Sequence record: OR352953.1
DNA from: Escherichia phage AV123
DNA: 64,000 nt
Direction: 5' to 3' (one strand)
In this document: positions 29,997-36,681 of the stretch, piece by piece
Position numbering within the stretch: the first letter of the stretch is position 1
Layout: each line of letters opens with the position of its first letter
Translations under genes and position numbers: made by a program
The notes under the pieces: model-generated
Told to the model about the DNA's origin: nothing
Databases searched by the model: none
The model's input: the letters and a program-made list of their open reading frames with translations, nothing else

Positions 29997-30338
29997 ATGG
30001 AGCTAACAGAAGTATGGGATATCGCTAAAGAGGCGATTATCCCTCTTATTGGCGTAATCTGGGTGGTCTTCAAACAGAAGATAGATGATATGGCAAGTGA
30101 TTTGGATAAAATGGAAGACAAATACCGCGAACTAGAAAAGAAGTTGGTGTTTGTTGAATCCACTTATGCTACCAAAGCAGAACTTGCTCAAATGCTTAAC
30201 CAGATCAACTCTACATTAATGGCAAATAATACTGCCTTAGAACAGAAGATTGAAAAAATAATGGATTTAAAAAATGCTCCTGTTCAATTAATGCTAGAGG
30301 AGATTACAAAGCGCACACAAAGTAAGGACAAAAATTAA
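29997..30338 (+). CDS. membrane-anchored coiled-coil protein (function unknown)
   Basis: 113 aa with N-terminal hydrophobic segment IIPLIGVIWVVF followed by charged coiled-coil-like sequence. Confidence 0.35.
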   Translation: MELTEVWDIAKEAIIPLIGVIWVVFKQKIDDMASDLDKMEDKYRELEKKLVFVESTYATKAELAQMLNQINSTLMANNTALEQKIEKIMDLKNAPVQLMLEEITKRTQSKDKN

Positions 30339-32752
30339 TGGCGAATTTTCCAACATATCCTGCTACGACACTAGAACAAGGTGTTGATCTGGTTATATTC
30401 TCGTCTAACCAGATGCATGATGTTATTAATGGAGATGCTACAGCAACTGTAGAAACCGAAACAGGTTTAATACCTACACTGCGTAAAGCACTTGTTGATA
30501 ACTTCTTCTTTAAGAGTCCTGTTGCTTGGTCAGCAGGATCAACTGAAACTGTATTTAACCAGTTACGTTATTTTGAAAACGGTATCTTGAGTGGGTACTA
30601 TTATGCCCCATCTGCCACTACTGCTAACCCTGTACCTATGCAGGGTACACCTGTAGGAGACAGTAACTGGACTCTGTACGCTCTTAAAACTGAACAGTTA
30701 GCTTCAGATGTGTATCCTTGGTATTTTAAAGGTGCTACAGGATATGAAACAGAAATCAGTCCTCCTTATATCTTTGATAATGCTATTGTCACCATTAACG
30801 GTGTAATTCAGATTCAAGGTGAAGCATTTACTATCAAAGATAGTAAAATTATTCTGGCAGAACCATTAGGTTTAGATCCGTCTACTGGTCTACCTAACAA
30901 ATTGTTTGCTTTTATTGGTAAAACAACAGCCTCTACTTCCTACGTAGAGAAAAACCTTTTGTCATCTACCACTGGTGCAGCAATGATTGGTCTTCCATCT
31001 GGAGGCAACCTGTTACAAGCTCAATACTTTGTAACGCCTGAGCAGTTTGGTGCAATTGGTGATGGAGTTACCGATGATACTCAAGCAATTTTAAAAACTA
31101 TTACTTTCGCTAACACGAATAACATTCAAGTACGTGCAGATAAGAATTATAGATTCACAAGCTCAATTGCTATGTCTGGTATTCGTTGGTATGGTGGTAC
31201 ATTCACTGGTAACGGTGGAACAATGATTTCTACTGTGTCCTGTTGGATGGAAAACGTTCGCTTTGAAAAATGTTATGTTAAGATGTTAGGTGGTGATTGC
31301 CGATTCTATCGTAATATCTTCTCCAACGCAACATCTACAGCAGCATTCTTAATGCAAGCAATGACAAGTGAAGGTACGTTGGACTTCAGTTACAACGAAA
31401 TGTATGGTTGTAAATATGCGATCCTGCAACAAGGTACTGGAGAAGTAATGACCTACGGGCGTTACTCTAACAACTATATTCACGATATTAAAGGTGATGC
31501 TATTGAACTTAACGTAGTTCAAAAACACTACACTGAAGGTTTGATTATCGAGAATAACCACATTGCTAACGTAGATGCTTCTGGACAAGGTGCAAACTGG
31601 GGTATTGGTATTGGTGTAGCAGGTAGTGGCCCATATGGTGTTGATGTTCCTGATTCACAATATGTACGTAATTTCAGTATCGTTGGGAATAGGGTTTACA
31701 ATTGCCGTCAATGTTTACACGTTGAAATGGGTAAAAACTTCACAATACGTGATAATGAAGTTTATCCTAACACAGCAGTTTCAACAGGTACAGGTTTAAC
31801 TACTTGTGGTGTTGCATTATACGGATGCCAAGATTTTGAAGTTGATGGTTTAACTGGTTATCTGCTTAATGATCCATCTGTTTCAACACGCATGGTCTTT
31901 ATTGACTGGGGTGTTAACAGTGGAAGATATGCGGGGCCACCAATTAACTTTACAATTAAGAATTTGGATATTCCAGAATCTTCAATTGAGATTGCAACAT
32001 CTGGATCAGATGACTGGGAAAACTCTACAATTGTTAGTAATATCAATTGTAATGTTTTTAAATGGCGTGGGCTACCATCTAGCTCTACCTTTAATAATAT
32101 TCGTTGCCGTAGTATTGACTTTATTGGTCAACACGGAAGCGGAGAAGGAAGTGGTGGCGGTTTCTATACTCGCAGCCAATTCACGTATATGAAGTGGGTA
32201 GGATGTACAGCACTTAGCGGAGATGAAACAACAGTTTCTTTTGCTAAAATCTACACTGATCGTTGCGATCAGGTTGGAAATAACTTTGGTGTTCCAACTG
32301 CTGTTGATGGAACAGGTCATCGTGGGCCAGTTTTAACTACTATTTCTGAACAATATTTTACAACTTATGATGAATTCCCAGGTGGGCGTGAATTCCCTAC
32401 TGGAACAGTTATTCATTGTGCAAGCGGTAAAAAACATGTTGTTACAGTAGGTGGTGCTTTCTTTAGTGCCAACGAGAAAATAAAAGCAACTGTTACAGGT
32501 CAAACCTATCTACAGTCTAATGCTTTAAACTGGGCTAGTAATGGCTACGCTAAAGCAGCAGGTACTAAGATTGTTATTCCAGGTGCAGGTGCAAATGGCG
32601 GCGATCTTGTGACAACTATAGCACGTGCTACATATGTGACAAATAGTTTGTACACAATAGATATTGCAGATCCAATTGTAACACCTACAGCAGAGAATAC
32701 ACAAATTAAAGCTCTGAACCCTGTTACTTTTGTTACTGTCAATAATGCTTAA
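30338..32752 (+). CDS. tailspike protein with pectate-lyase-like beta-helix (putative polysaccharide depolymerase)
   Basis: 804 aa containing FGAIGDGVTDDTQAILKTI (pectate-lyase-3 type hallmark) and downstream repeats typical of beta-helix rungs. Confidence 0.65.
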   Translation: MANFPTYPATTLEQGVDLVIFSSNQMHDVINGDATATVETETGLIPTLRKALVDNFFFKSPVAWSAGSTETVFNQLRYFENGILSGYYYAPSATTANPVPMQGTPVGDSNWTLYALKTEQLASDVYPWYFKGATGYETEISPPYIFDNAIVTINGVIQIQGEAFTIKDSKIILAEPLGLDPSTGLPNKLFAFIGKTTASTSYVEKNLLSSTTGAAMIGLPSGGNLLQAQYFVTPEQFGAIGDGVTDDTQAILKTITFANTNNIQVRADKNYRFTSSIAMSGIRWYGGTFTGNGGTMISTVSCWMENVRFEKCYVKMLGGDCRFYRNIFSNATSTAAFLMQAMTSEGTLDFSYNEMYGCKYAILQQGTGEVMTYGRYSNNYIHDIKGDAIELNVVQKHYTEGLIIENNHIANVDASGQGANWGIGIGVAGSGPYGVDVPDSQYVRNFSIVGNRVYNCRQCLHVEMGKNFTIRDNEVYPNTAVSTGTGLTTCGVALYGCQDFEVDGLTGYLLNDPSVSTRMVFIDWGVNSGRYAGPPINFTIKNLDIPESSIEIATSGSDDWENSTIVSNINCNVFKWRGLPSSSTFNNIRCRSIDFIGQHGSGEGSGGGFYTRSQFTYMKWVGCTALSGDETTVSFAKIYTDRCDQVGNNFGVPTAVDGTGHRGPVLTTISEQYFTTYDEFPGGREFPTGTVIHCASGKKHVVTVGGAFFSANEKIKATVTGQTYLQSNALNWASNGYAKAAGTKIVIPGAGANGGDLVTTIARATYVTNSLYTIDIADPIVTPTAENTQIKALNPVTFVTVNNA

Positions 32753-32758
32753 TTAAAA

Positions 32759-32780
32759 AGGGGCGAAAGCCCCTTTATAA
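32759..32780 (+). terminator. terminator-like hairpin
   Basis: AGGGGC-gaaa-GCCCCT followed by TTAT. Confidence 0.45.
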
Positions 32781-32793
32781 AAGGAGTAGTAAA

Positions 32794-34755
32794 GTGATTT
32801 TAACACGTCCAAATAGTGCCATTGCAGACATGGTAGAGTCTCGCTATAGAAAGCGTAGAAGTTTTGCAAGTGGTTTTACCTTAAGAGATGCTCGTGAAGC
32901 ATTGCTCTTTGAAACTGACGGTAACTACTATCAGTGGAAAGGTTCTCTACCTAAAGTTGTACCTGCTAACTCTACTCCTACATCTACTGGAGGGATTTCA
33001 GATACAGCTTGGAAAAATGTGGGTAATGCAGATGACATTGCTCAAATAGAATCAGAATTAGATGCTATTGAAGCTGAAATTGAAGATCTTAGAGAATCCA
33101 TTCCAGAAGCTGGTAAATCAGCTTACCAGATTGCCGTAGACAATGGTTTCCAAGGTACTGAGACAGAGTGGTTGGCTTCTTTAAAAGGTGATCCAGGTGC
33201 TCCATTAAAGCTGCTAGGGACGCTATCTAATACCAACCAATTACCTACAACTGGAAACAATGCAGGAGATGCATGGATTGTAGGCGAGAATATGTATGCT
33301 TGGGATGGTACTGCTTGGAGAAAAGTAAACTCACAGGGGCCAGAAGGTAAATCGGCTTATCAAGTTTGGCTTGCAGCAGGAAACCAAGGTACAGAACTAG
33401 ATTATCTTGCTTCAATTAAAGGTGATAAAGGGGAGCCTGGCCCAGAGGGGCCACAAGGTGTACCAGGTAACAATGCTAATGGTTTTGATTACCAAGGTGC
33501 AGCTAATTCCGTTTCAGATCTTCCTTCTGCATCTCCTGGAAACACATCTCAAGCATGGAATATTGGTACATATCTATACGTGTCAAACGGTGTAGAATGG
33601 ATCAATATGGGCGCTATAGTGGGGCCAAAAGGAGATAAAGGCGACAAAGGAGATAAGGGTAACACTGGTGATTCAGCTTATCAAGTCTGGTTAAACGCTG
33701 GTAACGTTGGTACTATTGACGAATATATTGCCTCTCTGAAAGGAGAAAAAGGTGATAAGGGAGATAAGGGTGATCAAGGTGAGCAGGGTATACAAGGCTT
33801 GACGGGGCCAACTGGTGCAGGGTTGACCATTATTGATATTCTGACTGACACTTCTGAACTACCACAAACTGGAGAAGATGGTGATGGTTATCTGATCAAT
33901 AATGAACTTTGGGTTTGGTTGCAAGGAGCCACACAGTGGACAAATGTTGGTCGTTTAGCTGGTACTCCAATCACTGCAAAAGGACACGTTGCGTCTGCAA
34001 GTGCACTTCCTCCTACATCCAATTACGGTGATGCTTATTTGACGGAAGATACAGGTCATCTTTACATTTACACCTATGATGAACAAACTCAAACTGCTGA
34101 ATATGTAGATATGGGTAGTTTGAAAGGTGATAAGGGTGAGAAAGGTGACGCTGGTACTAACGGTACAGACGGTGCTACTTGGATTGTTAAAACAACAGAT
34201 CCAATCTCTAGTGATGGTAAACAAGGTGATTATGCCTTTAATATCTCCACTGGCGAGGTGTTCTTAAAAACATCTGCAACTGTCTGGACTTCTCAAGGTA
34301 CACTACCTAGCATCACAGATGCACCTAGTGACGGTAAGATCTATGCTCGTAAAGATGGAGCATGGGAAGAACTAACTAGTTCTGTAGATGGTCAAGATAT
34401 AGTTCCAACAAAAGTAACAGCTAATTTTATAGAGGTTACAGCATACACCAACAACTCTGTTACAGGGGACTGGACACCTCCAGGAACACATAACATGAAT
34501 GTGTTGAATCTTACTGGTAACTCTACTATAAAAGCATGGCCTGGTGTCGAAGATAGCACAAAACCTAAACCATTCTCTGCAATAGTTTATCTTATCCAAG
34601 ATGCCACTGGGGGTCATACTGTTACTTTAGATCCATCTTACAAAGTAATTGGTTCTAGTGATATTAATACAGATCCTAACGGAGTAACAATACTACAACT
34701 AACATATTGTGGTGTTGGTGATTACGTGGATGCTATTGTTGCTAAACGCACATAA
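32794..34755 (+). CDS. tail fibre protein with collagen-like Gly-X-Y repeats and three tandem modules
   Basis: 653 aa, GTG start with AAGGAG RBS. G-X-Y runs (GDKGEPGPEGPQGVPG; GPKGDKGDKGDKGNTGD; GEKGDKGDKGDQGEQGIQGLTGPTG; GDKGEKGDAGTNGTDG). A threefold repeated module (KSAYQ..G.QGTE..WLASLKGD..; LPTTG..GDAW). Confidence 0.6.
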   Translation: MILTRPNSAIADMVESRYRKRRSFASGFTLRDAREALLFETDGNYYQWKGSLPKVVPANSTPTSTGGISDTAWKNVGNADDIAQIESELDAIEAEIEDLRESIPEAGKSAYQIAVDNGFQGTETEWLASLKGDPGAPLKLLGTLSNTNQLPTTGNNAGDAWIVGENMYAWDGTAWRKVNSQGPEGKSAYQVWLAAGNQGTELDYLASIKGDKGEPGPEGPQGVPGNNANGFDYQGAANSVSDLPSASPGNTSQAWNIGTYLYVSNGVEWINMGAIVGPKGDKGDKGDKGNTGDSAYQVWLNAGNVGTIDEYIASLKGEKGDKGDKGDQGEQGIQGLTGPTGAGLTIIDILTDTSELPQTGEDGDGYLINNELWVWLQGATQWTNVGRLAGTPITAKGHVASASALPPTSNYGDAYLTEDTGHLYIYTYDEQTQTAEYVDMGSLKGDKGEKGDAGTNGTDGATWIVKTTDPISSDGKQGDYAFNISTGEVFLKTSATVWTSQGTLPSITDAPSDGKIYARKDGAWEELTSSVDGQDIVPTKVTANFIEVTAYTNNSVTGDWTPPGTHNMNVLNLTGNSTIKAWPGVEDSTKPKPFSAIVYLIQDATGGHTVTLDPSYKVIGSSDINTDPNGVTILQLTYCGVGDYVDAIVAKRT

Positions 34756-34757
34756 TC

Positions 34758-34783
34758 AAAGCCCCTTCGGGGGCTTATTGTTT
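34758..34783 (+). terminator. rho-independent terminator
   Basis: AGCCCC-ttcg-GGGGCT followed by TATTGTTT. Confidence 0.55.
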
Positions 34784-34794
34784 AAGGAGATTAA

Positions 34795-36681
34795 ATGTAT
34801 CCTATTCCTTTATTTATGTCAACAACATCAGCTTCAGTAGTAACAGCTACATCTATAACTACTTCCTCTATTGGTATTGCAATAGTTGGTGGTAAAAAAC
34901 AACTGACATACACAGTTACACCGGAAGATGGTGCATTATTTGATATAGCTTTTTCATCTTCAGATGATACCAAAATGGTTATAGATAATAATGGTATGAT
35001 GGAGTTTGTTGCCGAAGGTGGTTTTGATGCAATAATGACAGCTAAAAATAATTTAGGTGCTGTCTTAACTGATCAATCTGGTGGTTATGCTTCAGAATTA
35101 AGTGTGTACACTGAAAGTCTATCGGCTATGGATGTAGGCACTACTCAACAGTTGGTTGCTACAATCCGTCCAGAAGGTGCTAAAGACCTTCCAGACATGG
35201 TAATTACATACACCACAACAGATCCAGAAGTAGCTACTGTAAGCTCTACAGGATTAATAACTGCTCTTAAAGATGGCAATTGCCGTATAGGTTGTACTGC
35301 AACGTATCAAGGAACAGTTGTGGCCTCTGATAGTTCTTATTTAGGTGTTAATGCTATTCCTGTTATTTCTAATGTAACAGCCGTGGCAAACAGTTATGGA
35401 GACGTTCGTGTTGCTTGGGATGTAACTGATCCGCTAGATGGTGATACTTATACTGTAGAAGTATTAGATTTAAGTGATAATAGTGTCCAGTGGACTACAA
35501 CAACCACAAATACTTACGCCTACTTTGATATCTCTGACTCTATTCCTCTTTATGGGTTTGCTCCAACATACCTTAAAATTAGCGTTAAGAGCACCAAAGC
35601 AGCAGCCGTTATCTTTAATAGCTCAATAGCTACAGATGATTCATTCATTAAAGAAGTTATTGTCTTTGCTGGACAAGATAACGTAAATGCACACTTTACA
35701 GAACTATCTGGCGCAAATAAAGCAGCAATGAGTAGCACAACAGCCCGTAATGCATATGCTACGCAACGTGGTTTAGCAAATGCTGAAGTTCTTCCGTTAA
35801 ATGCAGCTTCTGGATCATCAGCAGCAGATAAATATGCAGATGATAAAGCCGGAACAGGAACGCCAGACAACTACTGGTATGATCTGGATAACACAGCAGA
35901 TGGGCCATGCTTAACTAACTTTATCACTAAAGTCACACCTTATGCAAGTAAGGTTAAAGCAATTATTTGGGGACAAGGTGAAAATGATGCTGTATCAGCA
36001 TCTTCGACTGTTGCAGGTAGGTACAGTAACACTACACGTTACCATGATGCTACGATAGCTATCTTTGATAAGATGCGTACAATAGTTCCTGCTTCTCAAG
36101 CAAAAATTGTTTGGCAGATCCTAGGACGTTCTTATTTATATGGTGTAGAAGTTAATGGTGTGGATTGGCAGAAGTACAGAAATGTACAAAGAACCATCTC
36201 TACAGCACGTGATGATGTTATCATTGGTTCTTGGGTAGATGGTGCTGAACGTTACAGTGGTTATGTTTATGAAGAAGGTATTGATGGTCGTATCCATTAT
36301 ATTTCTTCTGTATACCAAACAGCAGCTACAAAACTTGCTAAATCGGCAGCAGACGGTACAGACTTAACATCAGCGTCACCTGTTTGGGTTGATATGTCTG
36401 TTCCAACAGGAGGAGCCGCTGTAAGACAAGCTAACCAAGATGCAATTATCTCTTGGGAACCAGCAGGATATACTAAACATTACTTCCGAAATGTAAACGT
36501 CCTCACAGCAGCAATTCTTACAGAACAAACCCTGGATACTAACACTTACACATTTACTTATGCAGATCAGGTTGAACAATATGGATTTGCAGCAGGTACA
36601 ACAGCGTTTGATGTTGCACACTATGATGCTGATAATGACGTGTTATCACCTCTTGTCAGATTTACAGTCAATGTTACATAA
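34795..36681 (+). CDS. virion-associated protein with Ig-like (Big_2-type) domains and a C-terminal SASA/SGNH-like esterase-like domain
   Basis: Big_2-like segments (e.g. TTQQLVATIRPEGAKDLPDMVITYTTTDPEVATVSSTGLITALKDGNCRIGCTA). C-terminal motifs FAGQDNVNAHF and IIWGQGENDA resemble the GQSN and WYQGESN motifs of sialate-O-acetylesterase-like enzymes, but the usual Ser is Asp here. Confidence 0.4.
   Translation: MYPIPLFMSTTSASVVTATSITTSSIGIAIVGGKKQLTYTVTPEDGALFDIAFSSSDDTKMVIDNNGMMEFVAEGGFDAIMTAKNNLGAVLTDQSGGYASELSVYTESLSAMDVGTTQQLVATIRPEGAKDLPDMVITYTTTDPEVATVSSTGLITALKDGNCRIGCTATYQGTVVASDSSYLGVNAIPVISNVTAVANSYGDVRVAWDVTDPLDGDTYTVEVLDLSDNSVQWTTTTTNTYAYFDISDSIPLYGFAPTYLKISVKSTKAAAVIFNSSIATDDSFIKEVIVFAGQDNVNAHFTELSGANKAAMSSTTARNAYATQRGLANAEVLPLNAASGSSAADKYADDKAGTGTPDNYWYDLDNTADGPCLTNFITKVTPYASKVKAIIWGQGENDAVSASSTVAGRYSNTTRYHDATIAIFDKMRTIVPASQAKIVWQILGRSYLYGVEVNGVDWQKYRNVQRTISTARDDVIIGSWVDGAERYSGYVYEEGIDGRIHYISSVYQTAATKLAKSAADGTDLTSASPVWVDMSVPTGGAAVRQANQDAIISWEPAGYTKHYFRNVNVLTAAILTEQTLDTNTYTFTYADQVEQYGFAAGTTAFDVAHYDADNDVLSPLVRFTVNVT

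Follow-up and report, generated by a model that had tools for sequence, protein, structure and literature searches.

In a 64,000-nucleotide stretch of Escherichia phage AV123 (sequence record OR352953.1; hereafter the window), the open reading frame (ORF) at positions 32794-34755 encodes what is very probably a side (lateral) tail fibre of the phi92 gp151 type, with a segmented collagen-like shaft whose length changes rarely and by whole units. Judged by sequence similarity, the source of the window is a phi92-like coliphage of the genus Justusliebigvirus, and the ORF is an already known gene in this known genus, the orthologue of phi92 gp151. Profile matches and structure models show a predicted domain order in which a tailspike-type N-terminus is followed by a coiled coil, by A and B modules that alternate with four Gly-X-Y tracts, by a foldon-like hairpin and by a C-terminal beta-sandwich (Table 1). 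The fibre would be one of several receptor-binding proteins of a multivalent 'Swiss army knife' adsorption apparatus. Published receptor assignments in the genus are the NGR glycan for gp142, polysialic acid for gp143 and colanic acid for gp150.

We compared the gene with GenBank records and with protein families. Over its full length it matched 55 phage records at 96.8-99.7% nucleotide (nt) identity, and these records are Justusliebigvirus (phi92-like) coliphages, or so labelled. The closest is phage Paula (99.7%). Gene 151 of phi92 (PHI92_151) matched over its full length at 97.8%, and its product likewise has 653 amino acids (aa), follows the colanidase gp150 and contains the same four tracts and modules; the two proteins differ by point substitutions only. 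The protein also matched PHROG 15437 'tail fiber protein' end to end (aa 1-653 against profile positions 1-656 of 656; E 0, 1346 bits). In the annotation of the BASEL phages Bas60-62 the gene product is a 'lateral tail fiber protein with type I collagen domain', and the BASEL and RBPseg papers contain no discussion of the collagen fibre. The ORF directly 5' of the fibre gene (30338-32752) matched PHROG 6117 'colanic acid degradation' (E 7e-270). The genes are arranged in the order short tail fibre, chaperone, 113-aa lipoprotein-like protein, colanidase of the gp150 type, fibre gene and another tail protein, and the order around the colanidase and the fibre gene is identical in phi92, Paula and Bas61. 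A preliminary description of this DNA had called the product a tail fibre, and the PHROG match, the phi92 orthology, the position after the colanidase and the N-terminal domain described below all agree with that identification.

The shaft contains four Gly-X-Y tracts, which the preliminary description had located correctly to within a few bases; its start for the third, 33741, precedes the true one by a single base, a shift of one frame position. Of 20,000 shuffles of the protein, 40 gave a run of six or more Gly-X-Y triplets, which puts four such runs far beyond chance. The Pfam Collagen model (PF01391) scored 32.5 bits, above its cutoff of 27.2, and its best stretch is at aa 317-341. In an alignment of 31 homologues the tract glycines are invariant or nearly so. 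We also assembled 14 full-length orthologues (58-97% aa identity), and in 13 of them all four tracts have lengths divisible by three residues. Only P0014 departs from this, through a large deletion that cuts tract 4. The X and Y positions of the tracts are mainly Asp and Lys, with 13 KGD/KGE motifs, Lys at 10 of 27 Y positions and Pro at 6 of 81 tract residues. KGD and KGE are reportedly strongly stabilising in collagen peptides, as found in the host-guest studies of Persikov and Brodsky. This composition and register point to a collagen triple helix, and the collagen-like character that had been proposed for the fibre is borne out by the Pfam score, the near-invariant glycines and the whole-triplet indels. 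Taking 0.286 nm per residue, each tract would span 5-8 nm and each triplet 0.86 nm, and the four together would contribute about 23 nm of fibre. The NCBIfam models of collagen adhesins (Scl1/Scl2 and Lcl, which are LPXTG-anchored or secreted) gave 45, 31 and 28 bits, where their cutoffs are 400, 500 and 325. These matches reflect Gly-X-Y composition only, and the adhesin families were therefore rejected.

Between the tracts lie the two kinds of module. A module repeated three times had been noticed before, and it is real at the protein level: module A, with the pattern G[KD]SAYQ...G..GT....L.S[LI]K, occurs in three copies with pairwise Smith-Waterman z-scores of 12-21, and 0 of 500 shuffles reached the score. 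The B part, with the pattern LP...G.....[WY]........[WY]....W.N.G, is present in four clear copies (Smith-Waterman z 3.8-8.3). At the DNA level the module copies share 64-71% identity, which suggests that the duplication is old. In the AlphaFold2 monomer model, whose mean predicted local distance difference test (pLDDT) score is 64.6 for the whole protein, the A modules are predicted to form two short helices (helix-turn-helix) and the B modules four-strand beta units, with pLDDT values of 75-88.

To describe the distribution of this arrangement, we took the first A-B unit from 8 orthologues, built a profile of 79 positions and searched it against 1.84 billion cluster representatives. At E <= 1e-3 the search gave 16,069 proteins, of which 3,893 remained at E <= 1e-10; among the best 150, the number of matched stretches per protein ranged from 4 to 38. 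IMG/VR contains 276 confirmed relatives on viral contigs. The named examples come from Serratia, Acinetobacter and Citrobacter phages, where they are tail fibre or collagen-like proteins. Going by these profile matches, the three copies in the present fibre are a low-copy case of a very common fibre building block. A metagenomic protein of 2782 aa (P0135) showed 38 A-B matched stretches and others showed 15-26, so that some fibres may consist almost entirely of A-B units. The A-B module has no model in the local Pfam copy. DUF2934 (PF11154) is precomputed on some multi-module homologues; as a candidate for the A-B family it was rejected, since it gave summed weak matches only, to the second helix of module A. 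A phmmer search against PDB sequences found nothing for the A modules, the B modules or the C-terminal domain, and its matches were limited to the N-terminal domain and to weak foldon and collagen matches.

The two ends of the fibre carry recognisable domains. The N-terminal domain matched Tail_spike_N (PF18668) with an E-value of 3.6e-21, above the gathering threshold, and structural similarity was also found. This domain, of the CBA120 TSP1 / G7C gp66 type, is common to CBA120 TSP1-4 and G7C gp63.1; those proteins continue into an enzymatic beta-helix, whereas the present fibre continues into the coiled coil and the collagen-like shaft. The coiled coil has hydrophobic residues at 82, 85, 89, 92, 96, 99 and 103 in strict 3-4 spacing over 3.5 heptads, and the model places a helix at 81-102. 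After the last collagen-like tract and the fifth B unit, and before the tip domain, stands the foldon-like motif ITDAPSDGKIYARKDGAWEELTS; at aa 507-529 (34312-34380) it shares 11 identities with the T4 fibritin foldon (Smith-Waterman score 67, z 10.5). PDB fibritin and foldon matches span aa 507-528, and the models contain hairpin strands at 517-520 and 523-526. On the fibre itself Pfam Fibritin_C (PF07921) scored 19.5 bits (E 1.1e-3), just below the cutoff of 21, and several more distant homologues have a precomputed PF07921 hit. The T4 foldon is C-terminal, whereas the present motif is internal, with a 122-aa domain after it. Designed (GPP)n-foldon proteins carry the foldon C-terminal to their collagen-like part, and the motif here is likewise C-terminal to the collagen-like tracts, as in these engineered fusions. 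No enzymatic domain was detected in the fibre gene. PHROG 4549 and Pfam PF26208 and PF26209 ('Phage_phiTE_241_N' and '_C') describe one family of single-chain fibre proteins. In the window the matches to this family fall on the N-terminus of the colanidase (ORF 30338-32752, aa 9-116) and on the C-terminus of the fibre (34369-34752, aa 526-653); the ends of a phiTE-type fibre are thus split over two adjacent genes, which suggests domain shuffling in the fibre cluster.

We then consider how the length of the shaft varies. The GDK-coding stretches show a 9-nt periodicity, with Tandem Repeats Finder arrays of 2.9, 4.9 and 3.0 copies at 77-82% matches (77-90% over all arrays, which have 2-5 copies), and the longest exact DNA self-matches are 6, 11, 8 and 9 nt in tracts 1-4. 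The earlier statement that these stretches are direct DNA repeats therefore holds for the periodicity, but the repeats are imperfect, with exact matches of 6-11 nt, because the units use different synonymous codons. In the 55 close records the gene measures 1962 nt (653 aa) in 47 and 1971 nt (656 aa) in eight, the latter representing six phages (PD06, PD211, SD2, EC.P2, ECGD1 and PHB05). The longer form has an extra 9 nt, GGTGAAAAA (+GEK), in tract 4 between nt 34134 and 34135, so that GGTGATAAG-GGTGAGAAA becomes GGTGATAAG-GGTGAAAAA-GGTGAGAAA and the insert is flanked by two near-identical units. The inserted unit is identical to the phi92 unit at that position. Two origins would therefore suit the long allele, which is the rarer one in the genus: duplication of one unit together with a point change, or exchange between the two common alleles out of register. 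The identical insert occurs on two haplotype backgrounds, and variable sites of the fibre gene show all four allele combinations at site pairs, which indicates recombination inside the gene. Given the two backgrounds, one event that was spread by recombination is a simpler reading than recurrence, and recurrent independent slippage as the origin of the +9 allele was disfavoured. The protein cluster at 90% has 308 members, and the 15 listed (40 read) likewise show only the 653-aa and 656-aa forms. Among 60 listed records of the sister genus Phapecoctavirus, which share 89-100% nt identity, the span is the same.

Over longer evolutionary distances the tracts differ more clearly. Using the 14 orthologues, we counted length-change events by parsimony on a neighbour-joining tree made from the non-tract columns. 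Tract 1 has six triplets in all 14 orthologues and a minimum of 0 events. Tract 2 ranges over 5-11 triplets (minimum 6 events), tract 3 over 8-10 (minimum 2) and tract 4 over 3-13 (minimum 9), so that tracts 2-4 account for at least 17 length-change events in total. The tracts occupy 120 of 709 alignment columns and contain 51 of the 70 indel columns (73%; Fisher's p 8e-29, with columns that are not independent). Apart from the large deletion in P0014, tract indels are whole triplets throughout. The total number of triplets is 26-37 among the orthologues, which corresponds to 22-32 nm. The ranking of the tracts by events parallels their DNA repetitiveness, measured as exact self-match length, as slippage or unequal exchange predicts. 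A scan of IMG/VR yielded only four further near-full-length orthologues (L010-L013), and the tract-length sample was not enlarged. The length polymorphism on which the preliminary description had proposed to be checked is thus present, both as a 9-nt indel in 8 of the 55 close records and as variation of tracts 2-4 among orthologues. Slippage or recombination as the source of length variation stands as regards mechanism and location, but rapid variation does not, as the changes are rare and on an evolutionary scale only. In other words, length change is slow, and the locus is not hypervariable or phase-variable, given the constant lengths in the sister genus and exact DNA repeats of only 8-11 nt.

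Based on these results, we propose the following model. Three chains would associate, nucleated by the coiled coil and by the foldon-like hairpin, and the Gly-X-Y tracts would fold into short collagen-type triple helices. These helices may be held together mainly by Lys-Gly-Asp/Glu inter-chain salt bridges, and not by proline. The A and B modules would form trimeric knobs between the helices, and the C-terminal domain would be the distal tip that binds a surface ligand. Tracts 2 and 4, and tract 3 to a lesser degree, would gain and lose 9-nt Gly-X-Y units when short imperfect repeats pair in a slipped or out-of-register way, and homologous recombination between co-infecting relatives could then carry the length variants onto other backgrounds. 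As length events are rare, the reach of the fibre would be tuned slowly in the course of evolution, and not switched.

Several observations weigh against this model. In a 2026 cryo-electron microscopy study of phi92, gp151 appears only among four candidates for fibre proteins and its function is called uncharacterised, and the predicted gp151 structure could not be fitted into the unassigned fibre II density (PMC13450770). In a Foldseek search with the whole model, the best match was the capsid spike Pa223 gp52 (E 1.5e-4). The tracts are short (6-9 triplets) and Pro-poor, and in the AlphaFold2 monomer pLDDT is below 50 in all of them, as is to be expected when one strand of a triple helix is modelled by itself, but this is no positive evidence for such a helix. 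The misfit to fibre II would agree with a fibre on the capsid or neck, a decoration or whisker comparable to the capsid spike of Pa223 or the fibritin of T4, with a role in reversible adsorption. The foldon-like motif is known from T4 fibritin, and the phi92 record also carries the note 'potential capsid binding domain'. However, the N-terminus is of the PF18668 type common to the tail-borne CBA120 TSPs and G7C gp63.1, and the gene lies inside the tail-fibre cluster, with the colanidase tailspike on one side and another tail protein on the other. In addition, a phiTE-type tail-fibre protein underlies the definition of the C-terminal family (PF26209 / PHROG 4549), and Pa223 gp52 is only weakly similar (12% identity; template modelling scores 0.13/0.27). 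We consider a capsid or neck location unlikely. The shortness of the tracts, their low Pro content and their low pLDDT values would also suit tracts that serve as flexible, glycine-rich linkers or hinges from one trimeric knob to the next, in place of triple helices; only tract 3 reaches the Pfam Collagen cutoff alone, and the NCBIfam adhesin models remain far under theirs. Yet a linker does not need Gly at every third position, and here the glycines are conserved and the indels preserve the three-residue register. The KGD/KGE motifs, with the stabilising effect noted above, and the predicted trimerisation elements on both sides of the tracts likewise speak for triple helices, so that linkers seem to us improbable. 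Experiments on related collagen-like proteins, those of the side tail in E. coli O157 prophages, also argue against linkers: they showed these proteins to be trimers that contain a stable triple helix as well as a coiled coil and a trimerisation domain at the C-terminus (PMC3368898).

The repeats themselves suggest another possibility, in which the GDK-coding units would make the gene a fast, slippage-driven locus of the contingency type, producing fibre-length variants within populations. The 9-nt periodicity, the one-unit indel among close relatives and the nine or more length changes of tract 4 in the orthologues would all be consistent with this. However, a locus of this type would be expected to contain long perfect tandem repeats and many length alleles. 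In the tracts we found no long perfect tandem repeats (self-matches of 6-11 nt), and the exact repeats are kept to 8-11 nt by synonymous codons that differ between units. Many length alleles were not found either: there are two (1962 and 1971 nt) in the 55 Justusliebigvirus records, with the same two forms in the listed cluster members, and one in the 60 listed Phapecoctavirus records at 89-100% identity. The insert is, moreover, identical wherever it was read, suggesting a single event. A contingency locus is thus highly improbable, and we retain the segmented collagen-like side fibre with slow, whole-unit length change.

Comparison with known systems places this fibre among related proteins. 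The tail fibre of Phapecoctavirus (phAPEC8/WPEC1-type; 674 aa) is an orthologue with the same domain order at approximately 60% aa and 64% nt identity, and differs in having 2, 1 and 5 additional triplets in tracts 2, 3 and 4. EPclA and EPclB, from E. coli O157:H7 prophage DNA, are likewise phage-borne collagen-like fibre proteins, trimeric, with a coiled coil and a C-terminal trimerisation domain. They are described as dumbbells with one hinged stalk (PMC3368898), whereas the present fibre has four short tracts split by A/B modules, and the tailspike-type N-terminus is a further difference on the side of the present fibre. Pseudomonas phage Pa223 gp52 (PDB 9ny6) resembles our model in a predicted trimeric-type repetitive beta shaft that ends in a beta-sandwich knob.

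Two GC-rich tetraloop hairpins bracket the fibre gene. The upstream one sits in the 41-nt spacer 3' of the colanidase stop codon (32750-32752), and in the Paula record a terminator is annotated at the equivalent position, with the remaining terminators elsewhere in the cluster. The downstream one lies within the 39-nt intergenic spacer. These hairpins may be weak terminators or stem-loops that stabilise messenger RNA.

Table 1. Features of the fibre gene and its immediate flanks (positions in the window)
Feature	Position	Strand	Residues (aa)	Remarks
Hairpin GGGGC-GAAA-GCCCC, then TTTATA	32760-32773	+		GNRA tetraloop; GC-rich; read from the sequence
Ribosome-binding site AAGGAG	32781-32786	+		7 nt 5' of GTG; phi92 record has AGGAG at the same relative position
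Fibre coding sequence	32794-34755	+	1-653 plus stop	GTG start; phi92 gp151 orthologue
N-terminal tailspike-type domain	32824-33024	+	11-77	Presumed particle-attachment end
Coiled coil, short alpha-helical	33028-33102	+	79-103	Presumed trimerisation nucleus
Module A copy 1	33112-33186	+	107-131	GKSAYQIAVDNGFQGTETEWLASLK; then two-triplet GDPGAP; predicted helices 110-116, 123-130
Module B copy 1	33205-33339	+	138-182	LPTTGNNAGDAWIVGENMYAWDGTAW; predicted strands 139-144, 159-163, 166-170, 175-177 (small four-strand beta unit)
Module A copy 2	33346-33420	+	185-209	
Gly-X-Y tract 1	33421-33474	+	210-227	6 triplets, GDKGEPGPEGPQGVPGNN; Pro-rich, DNA non-repetitive
Module B copy 2	33475-33621	+	228-276	
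Gly-X-Y tract 2	33622-33675	+	277-294	6 triplets, GPKGDKGDKGDKGNTGDS
Module A copy 3	33667-33741	+	292-316	First residues overlap the final triplet of tract 2
Gly-X-Y tract 3	33742-33822	+	317-343	9 triplets, GEKGDKGDKGDQGEQGIQGLTGPTGAG; sole tract reported alone by Pfam Collagen
Module B copy 3	33823-33963	+	344-390	
Module B copy 4	33964-34125	+	391-444	No A module before this copy
Gly-X-Y tract 4	34126-34179	+	445-462	6 triplets, GDKGEKGDAGTNGTDGAT; most length-variable
Module B copy 5	34180-34302	+	463-503	Sequence-weak; same predicted beta pattern in the model
Foldon-like beta-hairpin motif	34303-34386	+	504-531	ITDAPSDGKIYARKDGAWEELTS
C-terminal beta-sandwich domain	34387-34752	+	532-653	Presumed distal receptor-binding tip
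Hairpin AAGCCCC-TTCG-GGGGCTT	34759-34776	+		UUCG tetraloop; GC-rich; directly 3' of the fibre stop codon

We also noted features of the neighbouring genes. The ORF 3' of the fibre gene (34795-36681, + strand, 628 aa) contains two Big_2 domains and a weak match to a SASA-type esterase. The gene at this position is 2820 nt long in Paula and 2829 nt in Bas61, and in phi92 it is divided between gp152 (609 nt) and gp153 (888 nt); among close relatives its polymorphism is structurally far larger than anything in the collagen fibre. Upstream of the colanidase, and within the tail-fibre cluster, the 113-aa ORF (29997-30338, + strand) matched PHROG 15210 'lipoprotein' and, weakly, Rz-like spanin families, and it overlaps the start of the colanidase gene by one base. 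Finally, five records labelled 'Campylobacter phage' (MG065639, MG065645, MG065656, MG065689 and MG065650; host Campylobacter jejuni) contain the fibre gene at 93-97.6% nt identity. Their genomes are sized like those of phi92-like or phAPEC8-like phages, and the records are probably coliphage contaminants or have misattributed hosts.

The gene is an already catalogued part of the phi92-type multivalent adsorption apparatus, and its presence in this phage adds nothing new. The domain map shows cut points for expression, labelling and tip swapping, and the foldon-like hairpin together with the KGD/KGE-rich mini-collagens provides a testable model for nucleating a Pro-poor helix of 6-9 triplets. 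A further speculation, which we regard as rather doubtful, is that fibre length is under host-dependent selection and that the A-B module is a general collagen-nucleating block of phage fibres; if this were true, the length differences among orthologues would be a selected trait. Length change is confined to the repetitive tracts, stays in register and is slow, which suggests that the length of this fibre is evolvable but stable, and not phase-variable.

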